Shown here in pieces: positions 13,601-50,909 of a stretch of DNA of 64,000 nt (its first letter is position 1; each line of letters begins with the position of its first letter). The stretch lies in assembly GCF_003334385.1 (NCBI RefSeq), contig NZ_QOWN01000007.1. One strand, 5' to 3'. The notes beneath the pieces were generated by a model. The model did no database searches, was not told the DNA's origin, and was given only the letters and a program-made list of their open reading frames with translations. Source of the DNA: Escherichia coli. GTDB lineage: Bacteria; Pseudomonadota; Gammaproteobacteria; Enterobacterales; Enterobacteriaceae. A program made the position numbers and the translations under genes.

Positions 13601-14878
13601 TCAGGAAATGGTGGCGGTCTTCCCTTCACACACTTGCTGATTTGAGAATCCCGGTTGTTCGACGCGAATAAACGGGCAAATAATAAACGCTATCACATAC
13701 AGGGTGGTGTAAGCGATAACCACACCAATAGTACTGAAATAAGGCAGAAGTACCACGGCGATTGCCGGAGCAAGGAAGTTGGACAACCCGGCTGAAAGGT
13801 TATAAACCGAAATAGCTGCTCCTTTATGTTTCGGTTCCAGTGCCGGGAAAACGGCTGCCATCGGTACGAATGCAGCAACAAAGATCCCCAGTGCCACCGC
13901 AGGTATCAGCGCCATAGCAAAGTTATGACCGAAATGTTGCGGCATGTAGTAGAACGCCAGGCTTGAAAGCGCCATTCCCACGCAACCAAACCAGCGAACA
14001 ACTTTCATCCAGCCCATTTTCTCTGCCAGCACGCCCCAGAATACGTTAGAGAAGATGGTGGTAAAGAAGAAGACTGCCCAGACCTGCAACCACTCAGAGG
14101 TGGTAAAGCCCAGCTCATCAACAAACATCATCGGCATAATTACGGCGAATCCGAATAAAGATAAGGTGTTGATAATGCGAACAATACTGGAAAGCAAAAT
14201 ATTGCGGTTGGTATAAAGCAAAGTCACCGCACGGCCCAGTTCGCTAAACTTCTCTTTTGTGGTTAGGTTTTGCATATGGCGTGGTGTTTCTACTTTGCGC
14301 ATAGAAATTAACGCAACAGCGCCACCAACCCCACAGAAGGCCAGCGCCAGCCATAATGTTCCCATTTCGCCAATAAGCGGAATGGTAAAACTGGGGATGT
14401 AGCTGCCGAATACGCCGATACCAATAGAGTAAACTGCCCAGAACCAGCCCAGAGCAGCACTGGTGCTGTCACTGCGTACGTTATGGACAATCGCCACAAT
14501 AAAGGCGTAGAGGAACAGCGGATAGGCTAGGCCACGAATACCATAAAACAGCAGGATTAACCCATAGTTCGCCTGCCCCAGACCAAAGACCAGAAACAGC
14601 ACGTGAAATACGCACCACAGCACAAAGCCGATAAACATGGTTTTTTGTGGCGTAATAATTTCGGCAACTACGCCGGAAACCCAGGCGGAAAGCGCTGCCG
14701 CCAGGCCATAGAGCGTAAAGGCAAAGGAGGCTTCTGCAGGCGTGAAACCCAGTGCTTTAATGTAATGCGACAGGAATGCCAGTTCAAAACCGTCTCCGGT
14801 CATAAAGATGGCAATGGCAATATATCCCCACACCAGATTTAAGGGTAATCCCAGCCATTGTTTATTTGTTAACGACAT
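13601..14878 (-). CDS. dalT: Pentitol (D-arabinitol) MFS transporter, DalT-like (about 425 aa)
   Basis: ORF 13601..14920 (-); start chosen at ATG 14878 (MSLTNKQWLGL) by alignment with the paralogous rbtT-like ORF; multi-TM. Confidence 0.7.
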   Translation of the reverse strand: MSLTNKQWLGLPLNLVWGYIAIAIFMTGDGFELAFLSHYIKALGFTPAEASFAFTLYGLAAALSAWVSGVVAEIITPQKTMFIGFVLWCVFHVLFLVFGLGQANYGLILLFYGIRGLAYPLFLYAFIVAIVHNVRSDSTSAALGWFWAVYSIGIGVFGSYIPSFTIPLIGEMGTLWLALAFCGVGGAVALISMRKVETPRHMQNLTTKEKFSELGRAVTLLYTNRNILLSSIVRIINTLSLFGFAVIMPMMFVDELGFTTSEWLQVWAVFFFTTIFSNVFWGVLAEKMGWMKVVRWFGCVGMALSSLAFYYMPQHFGHNFAMALIPAVALGIFVAAFVPMAAVFPALEPKHKGAAISVYNLSAGLSNFLAPAIAVVLLPYFSTIGVVIAYTTLYVIAFIICPFIRVEQPGFSNQQVCEGKTATIS

Positions 14879-14946
14879 AGTGACCTCGTTTGTAGGATAC
14901 AAAACGCCGCTCCGGTGCAAACACCGGAGGGCATTTGTGACAGATG

Positions 14947-16410
14947 TTATTGATTGCGATAGTTCAGGTCGTTGTGATACAGCGCAGTAAACTGCTGATA
15001 TCGTTGCATCAGCGCATTATGACGTTCAGGATCGCTGCGCCAGGTTTTGAAGATTTCAGGTTTTTCACACACTGCCGCCAGTGGTTTTCCCGCAGCAAGA
15101 CAGGCCAGACGCGCGGCTCCCAGCGCCCCACCCGTTTCACCGCCTTTATGCGTCACCACTGGCATATCGAGAATATCGGCCAGTAACTGCGCCCAGAATG
15201 GACTTCTCGCCCCCCCACCTACCAGCGAGCATTGCTCAATTGCCGTACCGCTTTCTTGCAGGACTCGCAGCCCATCGGCAATACCAAAGCTGACGCCTTC
15301 CAGCACTGCATATCCCATTAGCGCACGCTGACTGGAGTGTGTCAGCGCCCAGAACAATCCCCGGGCATGAGGATCGTTATGTGGCGTACGTTCACCAGAA
15401 AGATACGGGAGGAACATCGGTGCACTGGCTTTGTCTGCATCAGAAAGTTGGGCAATCTCTTCCAGTAACTCTGTTTCCGTTACCCCCACCAGACGGCAGA
15501 ACCATTGCAGACAACTGGCGGCACTGAGCATTACACTCATCTGGTGCCATAAATTCGGTAGTACGTGACAGAAAGCATGGACTGCTGATTGCGGCGCAGG
15601 ACGATAGGCATCTGTCACTACAAACAACACCCCGGAAGTTCCCAAAGAAATAAACGCATCTCCGGGAGAAACGGCCCCCACACCAATTGCGCTCACGGCG
15701 TTATCGCCACCGCCACCAGCAACTACAACCGAAGATGTCAGCCCCCAACGGCTGGCAACTTCAGGGGAAAGAGTGGCAGAAACGTCACAACCTTCCACCA
15801 GTTCCGGCATATTCGCCCGTGTCAGGCCACATTTTTCCAGCAACGAATCTGACCAGTCGCGTTTTTCCACGTCGAGCCACAACGTGCCAGCAGAATCCGA
15901 CATATCGGAAATCTTTTGGCCGGTCATTTTGAAACGCAAATAGTCTTTCGGCAGTAAAACGGTGGAAATGCGCGCAAAGTGCTGCGGCTCATGGCGCCGT
16001 ACCCATAGCAATTTGGGGGCGGTAAATCCAGGCATCGCCAGGTTTCCCGCTACCTGATGCAACTCTGGTGCGATCTCTTCCAGCTCCGCACACTCCTGCG
16101 CACTGCGGGTGTCGTTCCATAAAATCGCCGGACGAATCGCCTCTCCTTTTTCATCCAACAGGACGGCACCATGCATTTGACCAGAAAGGCCAATGGCTTT
16201 GATCGCCTGCCAGTGGTGACCGCATTTTTCCCGCAGGGTCGACATTAAATATTCCGTCGCTTCCCACCAGGCTTGCGGCGATTGTTCTGACCAGTGTGGA
16301 TGGGGCCGCTGAATGGTCAGCGGCGCACTATGGGTGGCAACAATTTCATTGTTTTCATCAATGACCAGCGCCTTAACTTCCGATGTGCCCAGATCGATAC
16401 CCAGATACAT
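14947..16410 (-). CDS. dalK: FGGY-family sugar kinase, xylulokinase (DalK/XylB-like, 487 aa)
   Basis: ORF 14947..16410 (-); N-terminal MYLGIDLGTSEVKA FGGY motif. Confidence 0.75.
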   Translation of the reverse strand: MYLGIDLGTSEVKALVIDENNEIVATHSAPLTIQRPHPHWSEQSPQAWWEATEYLMSTLREKCGHHWQAIKAIGLSGQMHGAVLLDEKGEAIRPAILWNDTRSAQECAELEEIAPELHQVAGNLAMPGFTAPKLLWVRRHEPQHFARISTVLLPKDYLRFKMTGQKISDMSDSAGTLWLDVEKRDWSDSLLEKCGLTRANMPELVEGCDVSATLSPEVASRWGLTSSVVVAGGGGDNAVSAIGVGAVSPGDAFISLGTSGVLFVVTDAYRPAPQSAVHAFCHVLPNLWHQMSVMLSAASCLQWFCRLVGVTETELLEEIAQLSDADKASAPMFLPYLSGERTPHNDPHARGLFWALTHSSQRALMGYAVLEGVSFGIADGLRVLQESGTAIEQCSLVGGGARSPFWAQLLADILDMPVVTHKGGETGGALGAARLACLAAGKPLAAVCEKPEIFKTWRSDPERHNALMQRYQQFTALYHNDLNYRNQ

Positions 16411-16423
16411 AACCGCCTCCTGG

Positions 16424-17791
16424 TTAGTTAATTAACGCGTAGACGTCAGCGATTTTTTCGCGCAACAACGCGGCAAAATCTTCACGTTCGGTTAAATCGC
16501 CAAACAGCGCTTTATCACTGGCATAAACAGCGACGGGATCGGCAGACTGGAACATTGCATGGACAGCTGGTGCATCAAGGATGCCATCCTGATATTCATA
16601 GGGCAGTTTGCCGTGATGCCATTGCTCCATGAATACGTAAAACAGTGCAGGTAACATGGCGGTGGCATTCGGGCGAACGCCTCGCTGGTAGCACTCTCGC
16701 AGTGTGGGGGCAATCATCGCCGGAATTTTCGAGAAACCATCCGCAGCGACGCGTTGGTTGGTGTCCTGAATATGTGGATTGGTAAAACGCTTGAGTACAA
16801 CATCACGGTAGGTTGGCAAATCGATACCGTTATCGCCCAAGCAAGGAATGACATCTTCCGTCACGTAGCGGTCGGCAATCTGATAGATAAAATCGGTCAT
16901 TGTGCTTTCGTGGATATATTTTTGACCGATTAACGTACCTGCCCAGGCGATGCAACTGTGTGAAGAGTTAAGAATGCGAATCTTCGCCTCTTCATAGGGG
17001 ATTACCGACGCCACCAGTTCGACACCGACCTTCTCCAGTGCCGGACGGACATCACGGAAATTATCTTCCACGACCCACTGGATAAAGGTTTCGCCCATTA
17101 CCGGCGCTTTATCGGCAATACCCGTTTGAGCCTTGATCCGTGCCGGAAGTTCTGCTGCCGGACGAGGCGTAATGCGGTCAACCATGGTATTCGGGCAAGT
17201 GGTATTTGTACTCAGCCAGTCGATGACATCCTGTTTGCCAGTTAGCTGGAGAAACTCAACCAGGCCATCATGGAAACGTTCACCATTATGGCGCACGTTA
17301 TCGCAATTCAGCAGGGTTAGTGGTCCGGCGTTATTTGCCATACGTGCTTCGAGGATACGGGTAATAACACCGTAAATTGTTTTGCATCCCCCTTTAAGAT
17401 CTGCCGCTAAATCAGGATTGTTAACTTCCAGTTTGTGACTGGTATTCAGGTAGTACCCGCCTTCGGTGACGGTGAAAGCAATCACTTTTGTCTTCGGATC
17501 TGCCCCTTCAGCAATCAGCGGTTGTAAATCTGCCTGCCACGGTATCAACTTCTGAATTGAGGTGATCTCTTCATATTCGCTTACCCCTTCCGGGCTGACG
17601 GTTTCCAGCACATAGCGACCTTTCTGTGCACTGAGTGCCTGTACGACATGTTCAGCATCATTACGAATATTGCCCGCAGCAATGCTCCAGCGTTTATCGC
17701 CCATCACCTGCAAACGGTGTAGATACCACGCCTGATGTGCGCGATGAAAAGAACCTAACCCGATGTGCAGCCATGTAAATTGTTCGTTCAT
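16424..17791 (-). CDS. dalD: Mannitol-dehydrogenase-family D-arabinitol 4-dehydrogenase (DalD-like, about 455 aa)
   Basis: ORF 16424..17836 (-); start chosen at ATG 17791 preceded by GGAG; N-terminal [13 protein letters not shown] nucleotide-binding motif. Confidence 0.75.
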
Positions 17792-18003
17792 TGTTTCGTT
17801 CTCCATTGACGTTATGGCTGAACTGTAATCGAACATTTGAGTTAATTAAGAGCGTTAGATCACAAAAGAACAATTGACCAAAAAAATTACAAATGACCAA
17901 ATCAAAGCAATAAACTTGCCTCGCGGTAAAGCTATGGCCAAAATGACGCTAATCAGTTGCGGGATTTTCACGATTCCGCACGCCACTTTTGAGGTAGGGA
18001 AAC

Positions 18004-18945
18004 GTGAACAAAGAAGATGACATCAGGCTCGATCAAAAAGTACGGGCGGCATGGATGTACTACATTGCCGGACTTAATCAGAGTGAAATCGCAAGTCAGT
18101 TAGGTACTTCACGGCCAGTGGTTCAACGCCTGATAGCAGCAGCGAAAGACGAAGGGATTGTGTCGATTGGATTGCATCATCCGGTTGCCAACTGTCTCGA
18201 TTATGCCCAACTGTTAAAGGAAAAGTACCAATTAACCGACTGCAATATTATGCCGGTTTACAGTATTGAAAGTACGCTCGACAGCGTGACATTTGGCTGT
18301 TATCAACTGATGGCGCGTTACTTACAGGGTGACAAACCGACCATCGTTGGTATTGGTTCTGGCTTAACGTTGAAGAAAACCATTAAACGTATCGATTTTG
18401 ATAGTCAGAATACCCGCTGTGTGGCGCTGATTAGCGCCATGAATGAACACGGGCAATGTAACTATTACGACGACGTACCGCTGCTTTTGGCGAGAAAAAT
18501 TCAGGGAAAATATTACCAGTGGCCAGCTCCACGCTATGCTCAGTCCCGCGAAGAGTACCAAATGTGGTCAACCAATCGATTGTTCCGCAACGTCTCTACC
18601 GTAGCGCGTGACTCTGATGTTATTTTCGTGGGTATTGGTGCTTTAGGTCGTCAAAGCCCTATTTTCAAAGATGGCTTTATTGATGAGCAGCAACTGGAAG
18701 AGTTAACAGCACGCGGAGGCGTTGGTGAAATCCTCGGACGCTTTATTGATGCTGAAGGCAATGTTGTGGAAAGCCAGATCAACCAGATGATCACCAGCCA
18801 TGATATCCGCGAAAGCAACTGCCCACGTATCGCAGCTGCCTGTGGTGAGGATAAACGTCCGGCGATCCTCGCAGCATTAAAAGGTGGGTGGATCAACGGT
18901 CTGGTCACCGATGAACACACCGCACGCTGGTTGCTGACACGTTAA
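18004..18945 (+). CDS. dalR: SorC/DeoR-like sugar-binding transcriptional regulator, divergent from the dal operon (DalR-like, 313 aa)
   Basis: ORF with GTG start at 18004 and GAGGTAGGG upstream; N-terminal HTH (LNQSEIASQLGTSRPVVQRL) plus sugar-binding-type C-terminus. Confidence 0.65.
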   Translation: MNKEDDIRLDQKVRAAWMYYIAGLNQSEIASQLGTSRPVVQRLIAAAKDEGIVSIGLHHPVANCLDYAQLLKEKYQLTDCNIMPVYSIESTLDSVTFGCYQLMARYLQGDKPTIVGIGSGLTLKKTIKRIDFDSQNTRCVALISAMNEHGQCNYYDDVPLLLARKIQGKYYQWPAPRYAQSREEYQMWSTNRLFRNVSTVARDSDVIFVGIGALGRQSPIFKDGFIDEQQLEELTARGGVGEILGRFIDAEGNVVESQINQMITSHDIRESNCPRIAAACGEDKRPAILAALKGGWINGLVTDEHTARWLLTR

Positions 18946-18947
18946 TC

Positions 18948-19979
18948 TCAGCTGACAACATTCAGGCTCGGAATGAGTTGTGGCGGTATCTCAATGCGAC
19001 GCAGGGTGGTATCGCCAGAATCCACAATTTCAAACACTTTTTCGAGCATGGCGGGTACATCCTGACGAACCATATCGATATCGTGCCCGAGCAGAGAAAC
19101 AAAAGGATCCCAGTCAAAACACCCCATTGGCGGTTGATTGGCTCCCGTCTGCCCGGTTTGCGCCAGCCAGCGAACCACCCCTTCAAGAGAGATTGTCGAG
19201 TTGACGAATAACCCGTGAAGCGATACTGCAGAGCTTTGGAAGACCTCTTTCAGTAATCCCTCTACGCGAGCAGAAGAGTAGCCGGTAACCAGTTTATGTT
19301 CATCCGGTACGGTTATCCCCAAAGCCTGATGGGCATCGACAAAACCACATAAACGTTCAGCAGTATTGTTATCGCTTATACGTCCACCGACAAAAGTCAA
19401 AGGTGCCAGCTTGCCATAGCGTTTCTGGCTGTTGGCTAAAATTCTTTCCGTCAATAATTTCGCCCCCATATAGTTATCAGAAATGATCGACGGCGCCAGT
19501 GTTCCCGGCAGATCCAGATTCAGTGTCGGTACGCCCGCTTGCTGGCACATTTGGGCTATTTTATCCGGTTGAGTCGCTCCGGTAGCAATGACCCAATCCA
19601 CCTGCCAGGAGAGCATGGCGCGAGCAGCCTCAATTTCCAGTTCTGGCTGTCGCCGCGTACAGGTGATGATTGGCAGTAATCCTCTGGCACGCGCCATCTC
19701 TTCAAATTTTTCGGCAATCGATCCAAAGTATCGGTTGTCATATTTCGGCACAATCATGCCAATAACGTTGGATTTTTTACTGCGCAGTAAACTTGCCTGC
19801 CGATTAATGGCATATCCCTGCTCTTCCGCAATACGGGAGACCTTCTCAGCCAGCTTTGCGCTGATGCGTCGCTTTTTCCAGTTGCCATTCAAAATAGCGC
19901 TTACCGCACTGGCAGAAACGCCGGTTAATTCTGCCAGGTCGTAAATGGTCGTTTTCTTCGTTTTCTCAACGCGTGTCAC
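18948..19979 (-). CDS. rbtR: LacI-family transcriptional regulator, divergent from the ribitol operon (RbtR-like by position, 343 aa)
   Basis: ORF 18948..19979 (-); LacI-type HTH TIYDLAELTGVSASAVSAILNG; symbol assigned by adjacency, not verified. Confidence 0.6.
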   Translation of the reverse strand: MTRVEKTKKTTIYDLAELTGVSASAVSAILNGNWKKRRISAKLAEKVSRIAEEQGYAINRQASLLRSKKSNVIGMIVPKYDNRYFGSIAEKFEEMARARGLLPIITCTRRQPELEIEAARAMLSWQVDWVIATGATQPDKIAQMCQQAGVPTLNLDLPGTLAPSIISDNYMGAKLLTERILANSQKRYGKLAPLTFVGGRISDNNTAERLCGFVDAHQALGITVPDEHKLVTGYSSARVEGLLKEVFQSSAVSLHGLFVNSTISLEGVVRWLAQTGQTGANQPPMGCFDWDPFVSLLGHDIDMVRQDVPAMLEKVFEIVDSGDTTLRRIEIPPQLIPSLNVVS

Positions 19980-20137
19980 AAATTTGCCTCTTCATTTTGA
20001 ATGTCTCTTGCTGAGAATTTAAGCAAGTGCTAGATCTGCTTCATCGATTGAGCAGTTTGCTTCACACGGCAGCTAAATTCCCGTTCAGTGCGTGCAAGCA
20101 AACAGAGACTATAAATTCGCCCTGGTAAAAGGATTAT

Positions 20138-20890
20138 ATGATGAATCACTCTGTGCCCTCTATGAATACTCCCCTTAATGGCAAAGTTGCAGCTATCACT
20201 GGCGCTGCGTCAGGTATTGGCCTGCAATGTGCAAAAACGCTGCTCGATGCAGGAGCAAAGGTAGTATTGATTGACCGGGAAGGCGACAAACTGCACAAGA
20301 TTGTCGCTGAGTTAGGCGAAAACGCGTACGCGCTGCAACTCGATCTCTTCAATAATCAGCAAGTCGATAACATGCTGGCGGACATTATCGAACTGGCGGG
20401 TGGGCTGGATATTTTTCATGCCAATGCAGGCGCTTATATTGGCGGCCCAGTGGCTGAAGGTGATCCAGATGTCTGGGATCGTGTGTTAAATCTGAATATA
20501 AATGCGGCGTTTCGCTGTGTCCGTGCAGTCCTGCCGCATATGATTGCGCAGAGGTCGGGCGATATAATTTTTACCAGTTCCATCGCGGGCGTCGTTCCGG
20601 TTATCTGGGAACCGATCTACACCGCGTCCAAATTTGCCGTTCAGGCATTCGTACACACTACCCGCCGCCAGGTTTCTCAATATGGCGTGCGTGTGGGTGC
20701 GGTGCTGCCAGGACCAGTAGTCACTGCCCTGCTTGATGACTGGCCAAAAGCCAAAATGGAAGAAGCCCTGGCAAATGGTAGCCTGATGCAACCGATTGAA
20801 GTGGCGGAATCAGTATTGTTTATGGTGACCCGCTCGAAAAATGTCACCGTGCGAGATTTAGTGATCCTGCCTGGCAGTGTCGATCTGTAA
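20138..20890 (+). CDS. rbtD: Short-chain dehydrogenase, ribitol 2-dehydrogenase (RbtD-like, 250 aa)
   Basis: SDR motifs TGAASGIG and YTASKFAV; close resemblance to Klebsiella ribitol dehydrogenase as I recall it. Confidence 0.8.
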
Positions 20891-20900
20891 GGGCGCAATC

Positions 20901-22505
20901 ATGACAATAACCAAAACCGTTATTGGTGTTGATGTGGGATCAGGCAGTGTCCGCGCCGGGATTTTTGATCTCAACGGATCTCTGCTATCCCATGCCACAG
21001 AAAAAATCACGACTACGCGGCGCAGCGGAAGCCGCGTGGAACAGTCCAGCCAGGAGATCTGGCAGGCGGTCTGTTCATGTATTCGTAATGCGCTCACTCT
21101 GGCAGACGTTTGTGCACAAAGTGTGGCAGGCATCGGTTTTGATGCCACCTGTTCTCTGGTGGTACTGGATAAAAACGGTGATCCATTGCCTGTCAGCCCG
21201 GAAGGAGATGCAAAGCAAAATATCATTGTGTGGATGGATCACCGCGCCACCGAACAAGCAGAGCGAATCAATGCCACTCACCATCCGGTGCTGAACTACG
21301 TCGGTGGTAAAATTTCGCCTGAAATGGAAACACCGAAAATTCTCTGGCTGAAAGAAAATATGCCAGAGATCTACGAACGTGCCGGACAATTTTTCGATCT
21401 GGCCGATTTTCTGACCTGGCGGGCTACCGGTGATTTAGCGCGTTCAGTATGCACTGTTACCTGTAAATGGACGTGGCTGGCACATGAAAATCGCTGGGAT
21501 CCAGATTATTTCCGCACCATTGGCCTTGCAGAGTTAGCGGATGAAGATTTTATTCGCATTGGTCATCATATTGTTTCTCCCGGAACACCTTGTGGAAATG
21601 GTTTAACAGCACAAGCCGCGGCAGAGATGGGATTACTCCCCGGCACACCTGTCGCTGTAGGGTTAATTGATGCTCACGCTGGTGGCATCGGTACGGTTGG
21701 CGTAGAAGGTGGAGCGCTGAACAATCTCGCGTATGTTTTCGGCACTTCTTCATGCACCATGGCATCTACCACTTCTCCCTCGTTTGTACCGGGTGTCTGG
21801 GGGCCGTATTACAGTGCGATGGTTCCAGGTCTGTGGTTAGTTGAAGGCGGGCAAAGTGCTGCGGGAGCAGCTATTGACCAGCTACTTGATTTCCATCCGG
21901 CTGTTGAAGAAGCTCGCGAAATGGCACAACGTGTGAATCAGCCCCTCCCCGTCTGGCTTGCTGATCGAATCCTCGAAAAAACGGCGCAACCATCAGATGC
22001 TGTCGCCCTGGCGAAAGGGCTACACGTGGTGCCGGAATTTCTCGGAAATCGCGCCCCCTTCGCAGATCCTCATGCCAGAGCGGTAATTTGTGGCCTGGGT
22101 ATGGAGCGAGATCTGGATAATTTACTCGCCTTGTATATCGCTGGATTATGCGGAATTGGTTATGGTCTGCGCCAAATTCTCGACGCTCAAACAGCGCAGG
22201 GAGTAGTGAGTAAAAATATCGTTATTAGCGGCGGTGCCGGGCAGCATCCACTGGTACGACAAATTCTGGCAGATACCTGCGGTATTCCGGTCATTACCAC
22301 GCAATGCTGCGAACCGGTTTTATTAGGCTCGGCCATTCTTGGTGCTGTCGCCGGAAATATTGCACCTTCTGTTGGCGAAGCGATGCAACAATTCACCCAT
22401 GTGGATAAATATTATTATCCGCAAGAACGCTATCAATCTCTTCATCATCGTCGATATGAGGCCTATAAGCAGTTGCAGCATACTGCAAAATTACTCAGAG
22501 ACTAA
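20901..22505 (+). CDS. rbtK: FGGY-family D-ribulokinase (RbtK-like, about 534 aa)
   Basis: ORF 20877..22505; ATG at 20901 just after the rbtD stop; IGVDVGSGSVRAG FGGY motif. Confidence 0.75.
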   Translation: MTITKTVIGVDVGSGSVRAGIFDLNGSLLSHATEKITTTRRSGSRVEQSSQEIWQAVCSCIRNALTLADVCAQSVAGIGFDATCSLVVLDKNGDPLPVSPEGDAKQNIIVWMDHRATEQAERINATHHPVLNYVGGKISPEMETPKILWLKENMPEIYERAGQFFDLADFLTWRATGDLARSVCTVTCKWTWLAHENRWDPDYFRTIGLAELADEDFIRIGHHIVSPGTPCGNGLTAQAAAEMGLLPGTPVAVGLIDAHAGGIGTVGVEGGALNNLAYVFGTSSCTMASTTSPSFVPGVWGPYYSAMVPGLWLVEGGQSAAGAAIDQLLDFHPAVEEAREMAQRVNQPLPVWLADRILEKTAQPSDAVALAKGLHVVPEFLGNRAPFADPHARAVICGLGMERDLDNLLALYIAGLCGIGYGLRQILDAQTAQGVVSKNIVISGGAGQHPLVRQILADTCGIPVITTQCCEPVLLGSAILGAVAGNIAPSVGEAMQQFTHVDKYYYPQERYQSLHHRRYEAYKQLQHTAKLLRD

Positions 22506-22606
22506 TTAACCAGCCGCCTGACGCTGTTTTCAGGCAATCACTAATAACGACTCACTCCGGTAATATCCCGGAGTGCATTCATCTGCACCCTAAAAACGAG
22601 GTTTAT

Positions 22607-23881
22607 ATGTCCAGAAATAATAAACAGTGGTTGGGTTTGCCACTGCATCTGATATGGGGATATATCGCCATCGCAGTATTTATGACTGGTGATGGTTTCG
22701 AACTCGCATTCTTATCGCACTATATTAAATCGTTAGGCTTCACACCTGCGGAAGCCTCTTTTGCCTTTACGCTCTACGGCCTGGCGGCTGCCCTTTCCGC
22801 CTGGGTTTCTGGGGTAGTAGCGGAAATCATCACGCCGCAAAAAACCATGCTGATTGGTTTTGTCCTATGGTGCGTATTCCATGTTCTGTTTCTGGTCTTT
22901 GGATTAGGACAGGCAAACTATGGGTTAATCCTGCTGTTTTACGGGATTCGTGGTTTAGCGTATCCGCTATTTCTCTACTCATTTATCGTCGTTATTATTC
23001 ATAACGTGCGTAGCGAAAATTCCAGTTCTGCTCTGGGTTGGTACTGGGCGGTATATTCAGTAGGGATCGGTGTTGCTGGCAGTTATATTCCCAGTTTTAC
23101 GATACCGATTATGGGTGAAATGGGAACCTTATGGCTGGCACTGGCGTTCTGCTTTGCTGGCGGTGTCATTGCCATGATCTCCTTGCGTCATGTTAAAACG
23201 CCTGGACATATGCATAATTTAACTCCCCGTGAGAAGTTTGCAGAATTAAGTCGGGCAGTAACTTTACTTTATACCAACCGCAATATTTTTCTCTCCAGTA
23301 TTGTGCGCATTATAAATACCTTATCGTTATTCGGTTTTGCGGTCATTATGCCAATGATGTTTGTGGATGAACTGGGATTCACCACCTCTGAATGGTTGCA
23401 GGTCTGGGCGGCATTTTTCTTTACCACTATTTTCTCTAATATTTTTTGGGGGATTGTGGCAGAAAAAATGGGCTGGATGCGTGTTATTCGCTGGTTTGGT
23501 TGCCTCGGGATGGCAGCATCAAGTTTAGCGTTTTACTACATGCCGCAATACTTTGGTCACAACTACTGGATGGCAATGATTCCGGCGATTGCTCTGGGAA
23601 CTTTTGTTGCTGCATTTGTGCCGATGGCCGCTGTCTTCCCGGCACTGGAACCAAAACACAAAGGTGCTGCAATCTCGGTTTACAACCTCTCTGCGGGTAT
23701 GTCTAACTTCCTGGCTCCGGCAATTGCCGTGGTGTTATTACCGTGGTTTAGCACTATCGGTGTGGTCATTGCCTATACAGCATTGTATCTATTGGCCTTT
23801 GTCCTTTGCGCATTCATTCGCGTTGAGCAGCCAGGATTCAGTTCTGCGCCAGTGACTGAGAAGGCATTGAATATCTCCTGA
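22607..23881 (+). CDS. rbtT: Pentitol (ribitol) MFS transporter, RbtT-like (424 aa); paralog of the dalT-like gene
   Basis: ORF 22607..23881; long stretches of amino-acid identity with the 13601..14878 product. Confidence 0.7.
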   Translation: MSRNNKQWLGLPLHLIWGYIAIAVFMTGDGFELAFLSHYIKSLGFTPAEASFAFTLYGLAAALSAWVSGVVAEIITPQKTMLIGFVLWCVFHVLFLVFGLGQANYGLILLFYGIRGLAYPLFLYSFIVVIIHNVRSENSSSALGWYWAVYSVGIGVAGSYIPSFTIPIMGEMGTLWLALAFCFAGGVIAMISLRHVKTPGHMHNLTPREKFAELSRAVTLLYTNRNIFLSSIVRIINTLSLFGFAVIMPMMFVDELGFTTSEWLQVWAAFFFTTIFSNIFWGIVAEKMGWMRVIRWFGCLGMAASSLAFYYMPQYFGHNYWMAMIPAIALGTFVAAFVPMAAVFPALEPKHKGAAISVYNLSAGMSNFLAPAIAVVLLPWFSTIGVVIAYTALYLLAFVLCAFIRVEQPGFSSAPVTEKALNIS

Positions 23882-27525: not shown

Positions 27526-28487
27526 GCGGCGCTCGATTACACACGCTGCTGCCTGAATTAACCTCGCGTCAGCCGGTGATGGTCGTCGGCGCGGCGGTCA
27601 TTGATGTGATCGCCGACGCTTATGCCCTCCCCTGGCGTGGGTGCGATATCGAACTGAAGCAGCAGAGCGTTAACGTTGGCGGCTGCGCACTGAATATTGC
27701 CGTGGCGTTAAAGCGCCTCGGCATCGAAGCGGGTAATGCCTTGCCGCTCGGTCAGGGCGTGTGGGCGGAGATTATTCGCAACCGGATGGCGAAAGAGGGG
27801 TTAATCAGCCTGATCGATAACGCCGAAGGCGATAACGGCTGGTGTCTGGCGCTGGTTGAGCCGGATGGCGAACGCACTTTTATGTCATTCAGCGGTGTGG
27901 AAAATCAGTGGAATCGCCAGTGGCTGGCGCGATTAACCGTTGCGCCTGGCAGCCTGCTCTATTTTTCCGGTTATCAACTGGCCTCGCCCTGCGGCGAATT
28001 GTTAGTGGAATGGCTGGAAAAGCTGCAAGACGTGACGCCGTTTATCGATTTTGGCCCACGTATCGGCGATATCCCGGACGCATTACTGGCGCGGATCATG
28101 GCCTGTCGACCTTTAGTATCACTCAATCGTCAAGAGGCTGAGATTGCCGCCGAACGTTTTGCTTTATCCGCAGAGATAACAACACTTGGCAAGCAATGGC
28201 AGGAGAAATCTGCCGCGCCGTTGATCGTTCGTCTCGATAAAGAGGGTGCATGGTATTTCAGCAACGACGCTTCTGGCTGCATTCCGGCATTTCCAACGCA
28301 AGTTGTAGACACCATTGGGGCGGGCGACAGTCATGCAGGTGGCGTACTTGCCGGGCTGGCCTCTGGTCTGCCACTGGCGGATGCCGTATTACTGGGCAAT
28401 GCAGTGGCGTCGTGGGTTGTCGGGCATCGGGGCGGTGATTGTGCGCCAACGCGCGAGGAACTACTCCTCGCACACAAAAACGTATAG
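27522..28487 (+). CDS. yegV: PfkB/ribokinase-family sugar kinase YegV (321 aa)
   Basis: ORF overlapping the yegU stop; C-terminal DTIGAGDSHAGG PfkB signature. Confidence 0.85.
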   Translation: MSGARLHTLLPELTSRQPVMVVGAAVIDVIADAYALPWRGCDIELKQQSVNVGGCALNIAVALKRLGIEAGNALPLGQGVWAEIIRNRMAKEGLISLIDNAEGDNGWCLALVEPDGERTFMSFSGVENQWNRQWLARLTVAPGSLLYFSGYQLASPCGELLVEWLEKLQDVTPFIDFGPRIGDIPDALLARIMACRPLVSLNRQEAEIAAERFALSAEITTLGKQWQEKSAAPLIVRLDKEGAWYFSNDASGCIPAFPTQVVDTIGAGDSHAGGVLAGLASGLPLADAVLLGNAVASWVVGHRGGDCAPTREELLLAHKNV

Positions 28488-31727: not shown

Positions 31728-31850
31728 AGTTTGCTCCTGCCATAACGTGAAGAAGCAATGACCTGGTGGTCCGTGACTTCCCTACGCTGGCATTATCCAG
31801 ATCAGGTGATACGGGTATTTCTCAGCCTTCACGCAGAAGGGCACCCCGAG
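31728..31850 (-). promoter_or_regulatory. TPP (thi-box) riboswitch in the thiM 5' leader
   Basis: Minus-strand leader reads ggggtgcccttctgcgtgaaggctgagaaatacccgtatcacctgatctggataatgccagcgtagggaa..., with the conserved CUGAGA thi-box element; matches the thiM riboswitch as I recall it. Confidence 0.8.
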
Positions 31851-31949
31851 TCGTTTGGTTGCGATGATAAATCGCAGAGGAGGATGGTAATGTCCAGCGC
31901 ACGCGTTGTAAACGAGGAAAAACGGCAGTTTTACAATCGCGTTAATAAA

Positions 31950-50714: not shown

Positions 50715-50883
50715 TATACTCTAAATAATTCAAATTGGTCCGATCCGGCGCAACGTCCCAATGGCCTGGATTATAAATCTCATTATCTTAATTGCAACGG
50801 GGTCCAGCCGTGGTTATAATTCGTTCGTTGGAACACGATGTTGCACAGACTGTGGTGTTAGGCCTGAAAATAGTAAATAAAAG

Positions 50884-50909
50884 AACCTGCCTCACCAGCA
50901 GGTTTTTTT
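50884..50909 (+). terminator. Rho-independent terminator after yehK
   Basis: aacctgc-ctcacca-gcaggtt hairpin followed by ttttttt. Confidence 0.6.

Follow-up and report, generated by a model that had tools for sequence, protein, structure and literature searches.

The convergent regulator genes dalR and rbtR of the Escherichia coli pentitol island meet tail to tail across a gap of 2 bp. This arrangement is best read, at a probability of about 0.7, as an ordinary compact junction whose gap drifts between lineages, where antisense read-through would be ended by Rho, the effect on either gene would be small and the two regulons would stay essentially independent. The 2-bp junction is not beyond chance expectation, and E. 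coli has such junctions in many places. Functional cross-talk between the two regulons, which a preliminary description of the same DNA had put forward as something that convergent transcription could create, is unlikely to be large, judging from the sequence.

The dalR/rbtR junction and its surroundings

The window, which is the whole stretch of 64,000 nucleotides analyzed, carries the known E. coli pentitol island, whose gene cluster and layout had been described before in Klebsiella and E. coli C. The gene order in the cluster is dalT-dalK-dalD, then dalR converging on rbtR, then rbtD-rbtK-rbtT, and inverted copies of dalT/rbtT flank the island. Of 5426 complete E. coli genomes, 330 carry the pentitol island. 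Very probably it is the same island as the ribitol-arabitol (rtl-atl) genes of E. coli C (Link and Reiner, 1983, as cited in PMC6805351 and PMC2806823), a horizontally acquired ribitol/D-arabitol cluster that adjoins or replaces the galactitol genes and is found in a minority of E. coli. The features around the junction are as follows:

13601..17791, minus strand: dalD-dalK(xylB)-dalT structural operon, pointing away from the junction (NCBIfam and annotation)
17792..18003, no strand: dalD-dalR divergent control region, inside which the dalR promoter must lie (annotation and sequence)
18004..18945, plus strand: dalR (atlR), SorC-family repressor gene of the D-arabitol operon; 313 aa; start GTG; stop TAA at 18943-18945
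18946..18947, no strand: 2-bp spacer 'tc' separating the stop codons (read from the sequence)
18948..19979, minus strand: rbtR, LacI-family repressor gene of the ribitol operon; 343 aa; start GTG at 19979; stop TGA at 18948-18950
19980..20140, no strand: rbtR-rbtD divergent control region, inside which the rbtR promoter must lie (annotation and sequence)
20141..23881, plus strand: rbtD-rbtK-rbtT structural operon, pointing away from the junction (NCBIfam and annotation)

Across the junction the plus strand of the window reads ...ctg aca cgt TAA tc TCA gct gac..., in which the TCA at 18948-18950 is the rbtR stop TGA of the other strand. The coding sequences, stops included, do not overlap in the window (gap +2) or in a second E. 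coli allele (+1). In RefSeq/PGAP, a 100%-identical E. coli chromosome is annotated with identical CDS limits for both genes, which confirms the earlier statement that the two regulator genes converge and end 2 bp apart. An annotation artefact or a pseudogene is ruled out, as neither ORF is truncated, both agree with PGAP, and their homologues are intact and equally long. The IS1 annotated in reference strain 4/2-1 is absent from the window. An Rfam scan of the whole window at the gathering threshold found nothing at or near the junction, the only matches being CyaR, a TPP riboswitch and OrzO-P elsewhere.

The assignment of the two regulators to the SorC and LacI types, already made in the preliminary description, is borne out by their domains. 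The 313-aa DalR has the Pfam domain Sugar-bind PF04198 (2.8e-51) and an N-terminal HTH, the SorC type. The 343-aa RbtR has LacI PF00356 and Peripla_BP_1/4, and its best NCBIfam matches belong to the FruR/ScrR subfamily, every one of them below its cut-off. In the dal operon, NCBIfam identified D-arabinitol 4-dehydrogenase by the DalD equivalog (755.7 bits; cut-off 600), xylulokinase by XylB (636.3 bits; cut-off 380.25) and a DalT-type MFS transporter by RbtT/DalT/CsbX (513.9 bits; cut-off 375). In the rbt operon, the predicted D-ribulokinase matches FGGY pentulose kinase at 919.7 bits against a cut-off of 408.7, and the predicted RbtT transporter matches RbtT/DalT/CsbX (514.7 bits; cut-off 375). 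The predicted rbtD product, a putative ribitol dehydrogenase, is identified just as an SDR, with no ribitol-specific NCBIfam model above its cut-off.

The promoters of both regulators were sought with a consensus scan. On the dalR side the best sigma-70-like match is 8/12 (TTGCCT-17-CAAAAT, 17916-17944), and in the rbtR-rbtD control region nothing sigma-70-like reaches 8/12, whichever way it is read; such scans are blind to activator-dependent and atypical promoters, and their outcome is weak evidence. A-rich TGACCAAA-like direct repeats are visible in the dalD-dalR control region. The palindrome CTGCTTCATCGATTGAGCAG lies at 20036-20055 in the rbtR-rbtD control region.

Terminators and antisense read-through

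The claim that there is no room for terminators between the two genes also stands. The spacer has only 2 bp, so a hairpin cannot fit, and the terminator scan found no intrinsic terminator on the plus strand at 18946-19979 and none on the minus strand at 18004-18947. A relaxed scan of nine loci likewise gave no credible or conserved intrinsic terminator. As no terminator lies in or near the junction, each regulator mRNA would run past its stop as untranslated RNA antisense to the partner gene. With no intrinsic terminator on either path, the 3' ends must fall inside the partner gene, and antisense overlap is almost unavoidable.

The read-through is most likely ended within a few hundred nt by Rho, acting on C-rich, ribosome-free RNA. 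Stretches with C>G occur within about 100-340 nt on both read-through RNAs:

19046..19185, plus strand: C>G stretch in the RNA that reads through from dalR and is antisense to rbtR; candidate site of Rho loading
18608..18787, minus strand: C>G stretch in the RNA that reads through from rbtR and is antisense to dalR; candidate site of Rho loading

In the dalR read-through, 80-nt windows at offsets 101-161 past the stop have a C/G of 1.28-1.72; in the rbtR read-through, windows at offsets 161-261 past the stop have 1.53-1.91. The background of antisense strands in the analyzed DNA has a median C/G of 1.12 and exceeds 1.5 in just 16% of windows; because antisense strands are generally C-rich, the C>G stretches are compatible with a rut site and not diagnostic of one. 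Antisense transcription is known to be suppressed by Rho, and Rho-dependent termination relieves the interference of closely spaced convergent genes (PMC6847712).

Head-on encounters of polymerases at this junction would be occasional. With an assumed elongation rate of 45 nt/s and opposing firing at 0.001/s or less, the probability of meeting an opposing polymerase is roughly estimated at 0.09 or below, even over a shared track of 2 kb. The effect on dalR or rbtR expression is expected to be small, because the promoter-like signals of both repressor genes are weak and the induced operons face outward, and the two regulons would be essentially independent.

Variation of the junction and the Klebsiella hairpin

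Tight convergent junctions are frequent in this genome. Of the 24 intact convergent pairs annotated in 200 kb of the matching strain, 5 have gaps no larger than 2 bp, namely dalR/rbtR (+2), cueR/ybbJ (0), hemH/aes (-4), yohO/yehW (-20) and yegV/yegW (-27), the last of which also lies inside the window (28461-28487). The other four pairs are likewise tail to tail and have no intergenic space for a terminator. They are, however, functionally unrelated, whereas dalR and rbtR encode the repressors of sister pathways.

The same gene order is found in Klebsiella, Enterobacter, Leclercia and further relatives; a contig search for related loci found 5 loci. Across loci the dalR/rbtR gaps are +2, +1, -4, -4, +2, +7, +9, +22 and +21 bp, and neither the sequence nor the length of the junction (-4 to +22 bp) is conserved. 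Enterobacter (L005), Leclercia (L006) and Shimwellia (L014) have a 4-bp overlap (CTAG or TTAA); in the Enterobacter locus the dalR stop has been lost, resulting in 2 extra codons and the CTAG overlap. The DalR C-terminus, ..TARWLLTR*, is invariant in nearly all relatives. The end of RbtR is variable and corresponds in the window to the following feature:

18951..18980, minus strand: non-conserved C-terminal tail codons of RbtR (QLIPSLNVVS), filling the space up to dalR (comparison of relatives)

Past the conserved 'EIPP' the RbtR tail has 4-12 residues, and its sequences are unrelated among relatives (LLMSSR, RLMSSS, IFVT, ELIGSQSLSG and VLIGSHNGMGES). Between EIPP and the stop of dalR there are 34-35 nt in loci of the E. 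coli, Enterobacter and Leclercia types, and Klebsiella has 42 nt. The DalR C-terminus is probably held by protein function, and the RbtR tail after 'EIPP' appears unconstrained, its frame running on to the first stop. A fixed DalR end together with an RbtR tail that is free to run on would lead to gaps between -4 and +22 bp in different lineages, and the 2-bp gap would be the present state of a drifting junction.

A close known counterpart is the dal-rbt cluster of Klebsiella pneumoniae and K. aerogenes (Heuel et al., 1998, Microbiology 144:1631; Wu et al., 1985, EMBO J 4:1339, as cited in PMC5156309 and PMC12307932). The Klebsiella loci (L009-L011) have the same gene content in mirror-image order, the SorC-type and the LacI-type regulator converging at its center, and their proteins are 81-82% (DalR) and about 76% (RbtR) identical to those of E. 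coli. The junction itself differs. After EIPP the Klebsiella RbtR tail counts 6 residues and the E. coli tail 10, and the Klebsiella spacer is 21-22 bp long with a stem-loop (z -2.2 to -5.4), compared with 2 bp and no structure in E. coli. This spacer pairs with the last dalR codons, thus forming a stable stem-loop centered on the dalR stop codon (-39.1 and -26.1 kcal/mol; z -5.4 and -3.4). By locus, the z-scores are -3.4 and -5.4 in L010 and -2.2 and -2.4 in L009. In loci with dal only, the dalR-end hairpin was not found after dalR, and the hairpin is specific to Klebsiella. The E. coli junction does not fold better than its shuffles over 58 nt (z +0.39 and -1.06) or over 121 nt (z -0.41 and -1.70), nor does that of the second E. 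coli allele (z -0.45 and -0.74). The Klebsiella hairpin, which is statistically significant, hints that insulating dalR from rbtR can matter and that E. coli has lost it.

Cross-talk, collision and comparison with known systems

The chief alternative is that unterminated convergent transcription of dalR and rbtR causes meaningful interference, or antisense cross-talk by way of RNase III or duplex formation, so that the induction of one regulon shifts the repressor of the other. The idea is attractive because both genes repress sister pathways, and the 3' overlap, almost unavoidable with a 2-bp gap and no intrinsic terminator on either path, speaks for it. Every dal+rbt locus examined keeps the tight packing without a canonical terminator, and antisense transcription is able to tune expression in E. 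coli (PMC4731013). Moreover, dalR and rbtR might be auto-regulated, since both regulators adjoin their own putative operators in the divergent control regions, and a rise on induction would increase the collision frequency. However, only the regulator genes converge, while the induced structural operons face outward, and the promoter-like signals are weak (dalR, 8/12) or absent (rbtR). The junction is conserved neither in sequence nor in length, and unrelated genes are often packed equally tightly, in about 1 in 5 convergent pairs of the same genome. In the classical Klebsiella aerogenes work of Mortlock and colleagues, ribitol and D-arabitol reportedly each induce their own enzymes separately, which also speaks against cross-talk. 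Untranslated antisense RNA rich in C over G is expected to be cut off by Rho (PMC6847712). In a synthetic E. coli system, repression scales with how strong the antisense promoter is, and RNA polymerases whose mRNA is under translation withstand about 85% of head-on collisions (Brophy and Voigt, 2016; PMC4731013), so that translation-coupled polymerases would come through most encounters. Taken with this evidence, appreciable cross-talk is unlikely. Synonymous-site conservation at the gene ends is no test of antisense function here, because cis-antisense complementarity is preserved automatically. A bolder form of the idea holds that the E. coli island, having lost the Klebsiella hairpin, has dalR and rbtR mRNAs with a long shared 3' overlap and mutual repression via polymerase collisions, RNase III cleavage of the duplex or both, with induction of one regulon measurably shifting the repressor level of the other and hence its induction threshold. 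We regard it as doubtful, more so than cross-talk in general; if true, it would be a natural antisense coupling of two repressors that differs between genera.

Two other alternatives concern the way in which the transcripts end. Collision of polymerases could cause bidirectional termination at the gene boundary, giving defined and overlapping 3' ends without Rho or a U-tract. Such termination has been reported as prevalent among convergent E. coli pairs (Ju et al., 2019, as presented in bioRxiv 10.1101/2022.10.23.513370), and the Klebsiella junctions do have a strong stem-loop centered on the dalR stop codon. By the same preprint's account, the model requires an RNA stem-loop at the boundary to set where the polymerases collide, and works best in highly expressed pairs. 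The E. coli junction, on the other hand, lacks better-than-random structure, and its repressor genes have weak promoter-like signals, which makes collision termination improbable there. Cryptic intrinsic terminators inside the opposite coding sequence, ending each transcript shortly past its stop, are less probable still. A weak hairpin with a T-rich tail does recur in most relatives about 770-800 nt past the dalR stop, and one relative (L017) has GCGGGAUCUCCCGC and then UGCUGUUUCU 25-42 nt after the dalR stop. But the recurring hairpin reaches just -5.4 to -5.8 kcal/mol, and its conservation is explained by protein coding, as it is the reverse complement of the codons of the conserved RbtR motif KYDNRYFG. 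In E. coli the plus strand is empty for about 770 nt, up to the sole candidate of the relaxed scan (-5.8 kcal/mol), and the minus strand is entirely empty.

An ordinary compact junction with Rho-ended read-through can also be set against described systems of convergent transcription. The hairpin-dependent bidirectional terminators (Ju et al., 2019; Wang et al., bioRxiv 10.1101/2022.10.23.513370) resemble dalR/rbtR in that the genes are convergent and have no canonical intrinsic terminator. Their defining boundary stem-loop is absent from the E. coli junction and present only in the Klebsiella version. The constructs of Brophy and Voigt (2016; PMC4731013) share convergent transcription through a coding region, where collisions and antisense RNA are possible repressors. 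In those constructs, strong antisense promoters were placed deliberately, in contrast to the weak-looking promoters at dalR and rbtR. In an excludon, a long transcript serves as the mRNA of one gene and as a repressing antisense RNA for a neighbor of opposing function, whereas the functions of dalR and rbtR are parallel, both repressing sister pathways.

A full-text literature search found no discussion of the 2-bp dalR/rbtR junction and no mapping of dalR/rbtR transcripts. In itself the junction has little significance, as descriptions of the cluster and of its mirror-image layout go back to the 1970s-1990s and E. coli routinely has tight convergent junctions. Its value is modest and lies in being a clean natural test case, with a strong hairpin in Klebsiella, 2 bp and no structure in E. 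coli, and a 4-bp overlap in Enterobacter and Leclercia. Comparison across these species could show what share a boundary hairpin has in insulating weakly expressed convergent genes.

The convergent regulator genes and the pentitol island

The window comes from the E. coli chromosome between mdtB/baeSR and the yeh genes, and dalR and rbtR, the repressor genes of the D-arabitol and ribitol operons, lie at the centre of its pentitol island. The preliminary description, which had placed a SorC-type and a LacI-type regulator gene tail to tail with 2 bp between them, is right in all details; the ORF ends, the gap and the regulator types were confirmed by the sequence, the PGAP annotation and the protein domains.

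Genes of the pentitol island in the window
13601-14878, minus strand: dalT
14947-16410, minus strand: dalK/xylB
16424-17791, minus strand: dalD
18004-18945, plus strand: dalR, ORF of 313 aa, end ...CTG ACA CGT TAA, stop at 18943-18945
18946-18947: spacer 'tc', the 2 bases between the dalR and rbtR stops
18948-19979, minus strand: rbtR, ORF of 343 aa, TGA stop seen as TCA at 18948-18950
20141-20890, plus strand: rbtD
20901-22505, plus strand: rbtK
22607-23881, plus strand: rbtT

The CDS limits of dalR and rbtR are identical in the PGAP annotation of the 100%-identical E. coli chromosome NZ_CP023834.1, whose locus coordinates equal those of the window across 2718-43563. The 313-aa protein carries a SorC-family sugar-binding domain (PF04198, 2.8e-51) C-terminal to its HTH, and the 343-aa protein has LacI HTH and Peripla_BP domains, with FruR/ScrR as the nearest subfamily. 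DalD, XylB, the FGGY pentulose kinase and both RbtT/DalT transporters score above the curated NCBIfam cut-offs.

The dal/rbt locus is an already known system, and its junction is of an ordinary type. The cluster was characterised in Klebsiella (Wu et al., 1985; Heuel et al., 1998; as cited in PMC5156309 and PMC12307932), and in E. coli C it is described as a horizontally acquired cluster that alternates with the galactitol genes (Link and Reiner, 1983, as cited in PMC6805351 and PMC2806823). Read directly from their sequences, the Klebsiella loci have the same gene order as the island in the window. Of 5426 complete E. coli genomes, 330 have the island: 303 match the window at 99% identity or more, and a second allele of about 83-84% identity accounts for the remaining 27. 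This second allele (L002, E. coli 2013C-4465; L003, a derivative of EPEC E2348/69) is without rbtT and adjoins gatR and the gat operon; the island in the window adjoins fbaB, and gat genes are absent. The E2348/69 derivative carries rbtR, rbtD and rbtK as pseudogenes. The dalT and rbtT genes form an inverted repeat of ~1.25 kb flanking the island (13646-14896 and 22589-23839), with 77.9% nucleotide identity and 361 of 425 residues identical, which we take to be, probably, the 'inverted repeats' reported around the ribitol-arabitol genes of E. coli C.

Promoter-like signals for the two regulators are poor. Toward dalR, the best sigma-70-like match is 8/12 (TTGCCT-17-CAAAAT, 17916-17944); no sigma-70-like match of at least 8/12 was found for rbtR. 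The rbtR-rbtD control region contains a 20-bp imperfect palindrome, CTGCTTCATCGATTGAGCAG (20036-20055), which was flagged as terminator-like by the scan. It is probably not a terminator and looks more like a candidate operator of the LacI family (RbtR). TTGCTT/AAGCAA half-site-like repeats lie near it. The dalD-dalR control region (17870-17950) is A-rich, with repeated TGACCAAA-like motifs (TTGACCAAAAAAA, ATGACCAAATC, ATGGCCAAAATGAC), which are candidate operators of the SorC-type DalR. This divergent control region is interrupted in the metagenome contig L016 by a YoeB/YefM toxin-antitoxin pair (L016:4224-4753).

Gap size at the junction

Intact convergent pairs were counted in a 200 kb annotation of the matching strain, where the gap is ≤2 bp in 5 of 24 pairs (4 of 23 without the focal pair), a small sample. 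The tightest, yegV (plus)/yegW (minus), overlaps by 27 bp at 28461-28487 of the window, with both stops verified. A 2-bp convergent gap is thus not unusual, and the configuration is clearly commonplace.

Convergent gaps (bp; negative values are overlaps)
Pairs in the 200 kb annotation
dalR/rbtR: +2
cueR/ybbJ: 0
hemH/aes: -4
yohO/yehW: -20
yegV/yegW: -27
dalR/rbtR in the window and related loci
E. coli main allele (window): +2
E. coli second allele (L002): +1
Relative L018: +2
Enterobacter cloacae (L005): -4 (CTAG)
Leclercia MAG (L006): -4 (TTAA)
Shimwellia (L014), rbtR decayed: -4
Metagenome contig L016: +7
Metagenome contig L017: +9
Klebsiella (L009): +22
Klebsiella (L010/L011): +21

DalR ends in ..GLVTDEHTARWLLTR* with hardly any variation among the relatives, synonymous sites being free to vary. 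The RbtR tail beyond the conserved 'EIPP' is variable in both length and sequence (QLIPSLNVVS, ELIGSQSLSG, VLIGSHNGMGES, RLMSSS, LLMSSR, IFVT). Between EIPP and the dalR stop lie 34-35 nt in the loci of Escherichia, Enterobacter and Leclercia type, 42 nt in those of Klebsiella and 22-24 nt in L016/L017. In E. cloacae, CAG replaces the usual dalR stop, so that the ORF is two codons longer and reaches the rbtR stop. This variable tail and gaps from -4 to +22 indicate a junction that is always short and not conserved in sequence; the gap size is where drifting stop codons chance to fall. Such drift fits the usual explanation of convergent overlaps, in which the loss of a stop codon lengthens the 3' end of a gene (PMC2716372).

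L007, L012, L015 and L023-L025 have no rbt half, and other DNA follows dalR there. In two of these dal-only loci, both of Enterobacter type, the first 6-9 nt past the dalR stop (TCTTCCGCG in L007, at 6943-6955; TCTTCAGCG in L015) agree with the 3' end of rbtR in Leclercia NCTC13032 (L008), at 9/9 positions in L007 and at the first 6 only in L015. The agreement is a hint, too short for certainty, that dal-only islands may stem from loss of their rbt half by deletion. C. koseri (L004) and Shimwellia have a frameshifted or decayed rbtR, and dalR is apparently frameshifted in Leclercia NCTC13032, possibly by assembly error; these lesions point to regulator decay in some lineages.

Transcript ends around the junction

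In the terminator scan, no terminator-like site was found on the plus strand over rbtR or on the minus strand over dalR. A relaxed scan of nine loci gave nothing on the E. coli rbtR read-through path and, on the dalR path, only a weak hairpin ~770 nt downstream with a T-rich tail (19715-19737, plus strand, -5.8 kcal/mol). Most relatives have it at the equivalent position (-5.4 to -5.8 kcal/mol), because its sequence is the reverse complement of the codons for KYDNRYFG, a conserved motif of RbtR; it is probably a by-product of that motif. The E. coli junction showed no structure over 121 nt (z -0.41 on the plus and -1.70 on the minus strand) or 58 nt (z +0.39 and -1.06), nor did that of the second allele (z -0.45 and -0.74).

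In Klebsiella, by contrast, the spacer of 21-22 bp pairs with the final codons of dalR in a stem-loop that has the dalR stop at its centre. In the counterparts of window 18915-18972, its energies are -39.1 kcal/mol (minus strand, z -5.4) and -26.1 kcal/mol (plus strand, z -3.4) in the K. oxytoca group (L010:5912-5968), and -25.7 and -20.9 kcal/mol (z -2.4 and -2.2) in the K. pneumoniae-like locus (L009:4560-4617). Since it has no U-tract, it is closer to the boundary elements described by Ju et al., which consist of a hairpin only, than to a classical terminator. At the equivalent position in E. coli, the DNA codes for the RbtR tail and just a 5-bp remnant, GCTGA/TCAGC, is seen; the dal-only loci examined likewise have no hairpin that uses the end of dalR.

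Because Rho terminates ribosome-free antisense RNA and lessens interference where convergent genes lie close together (PMC6847712), we infer that each regulator RNA would end by Rho-dependent termination a few hundred nt inside the opposite gene. The sequence is compatible with this, though no proof of it: C>G stretches occur soon past the dalR stop (plus strand, 19046-19185, C/G up to 1.72) and the rbtR stop (minus strand, 18608-18787, C/G up to 1.91), the medians in the window being 1.12 for antisense and 0.89 for sense strands.

Interference and cross-talk between the regulons

The preliminary description had also raised possible interference or antisense cross-talk between the two pentitol regulons. 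Such a functional effect has no support and is probably small. Convergence is confined to the two regulator genes, and the inducible structural operons face outward. In the E. coli system of Brophy and Voigt, a stronger antisense promoter gave more repression, and about 85% of RNA polymerases on translated mRNA survived head-on collisions (PMC4731013). A rough estimate, assuming 45 nt/s and hypothetical firing rates, puts the probability of meeting an opposing polymerase at ≤0.09 over a 2-kb shared track and ≤0.02 over 400 nt for opposing firing of ≤0.001/s. Termination by collision, as outlined in bioRxiv 10.1101/2022.10.23.513370, requires a stem-loop at the boundary and is most effective when expression is high; neither applies to the E. 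coli junction.

Unterminated dalR RNA would run antisense over rbtR and then sense into rbtDKT, and rbtR RNA likewise into dalDKT, so total termination failure would cross-activate the operons, beyond mere interference. In classical Klebsiella physiology each pentitol induces its own enzymes separately, which argues against strong read-through coupling of the operons. The sole feature that adds some plausibility to cross-talk in E. coli is the Klebsiella hairpin that E. coli is without. A genus-specific mutual antisense coupling of both repressors after loss of this boundary hairpin would be of moderate interest if true, and we consider it quite improbable.

Elsewhere, the closely related reference strain 4/2-1 carries an IS1 in a WGR/DUF4132 gene at ~43556-43563, where the window is contiguous without it. 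Three RNA features reached the Rfam gathering threshold:
10952-11037, plus strand: CyaR sRNA, between yegQ and yegR
31762-31858, minus strand: TPP riboswitch, upstream of thiM
50834-50909, plus strand: OrzO-P type I antitoxin RNA
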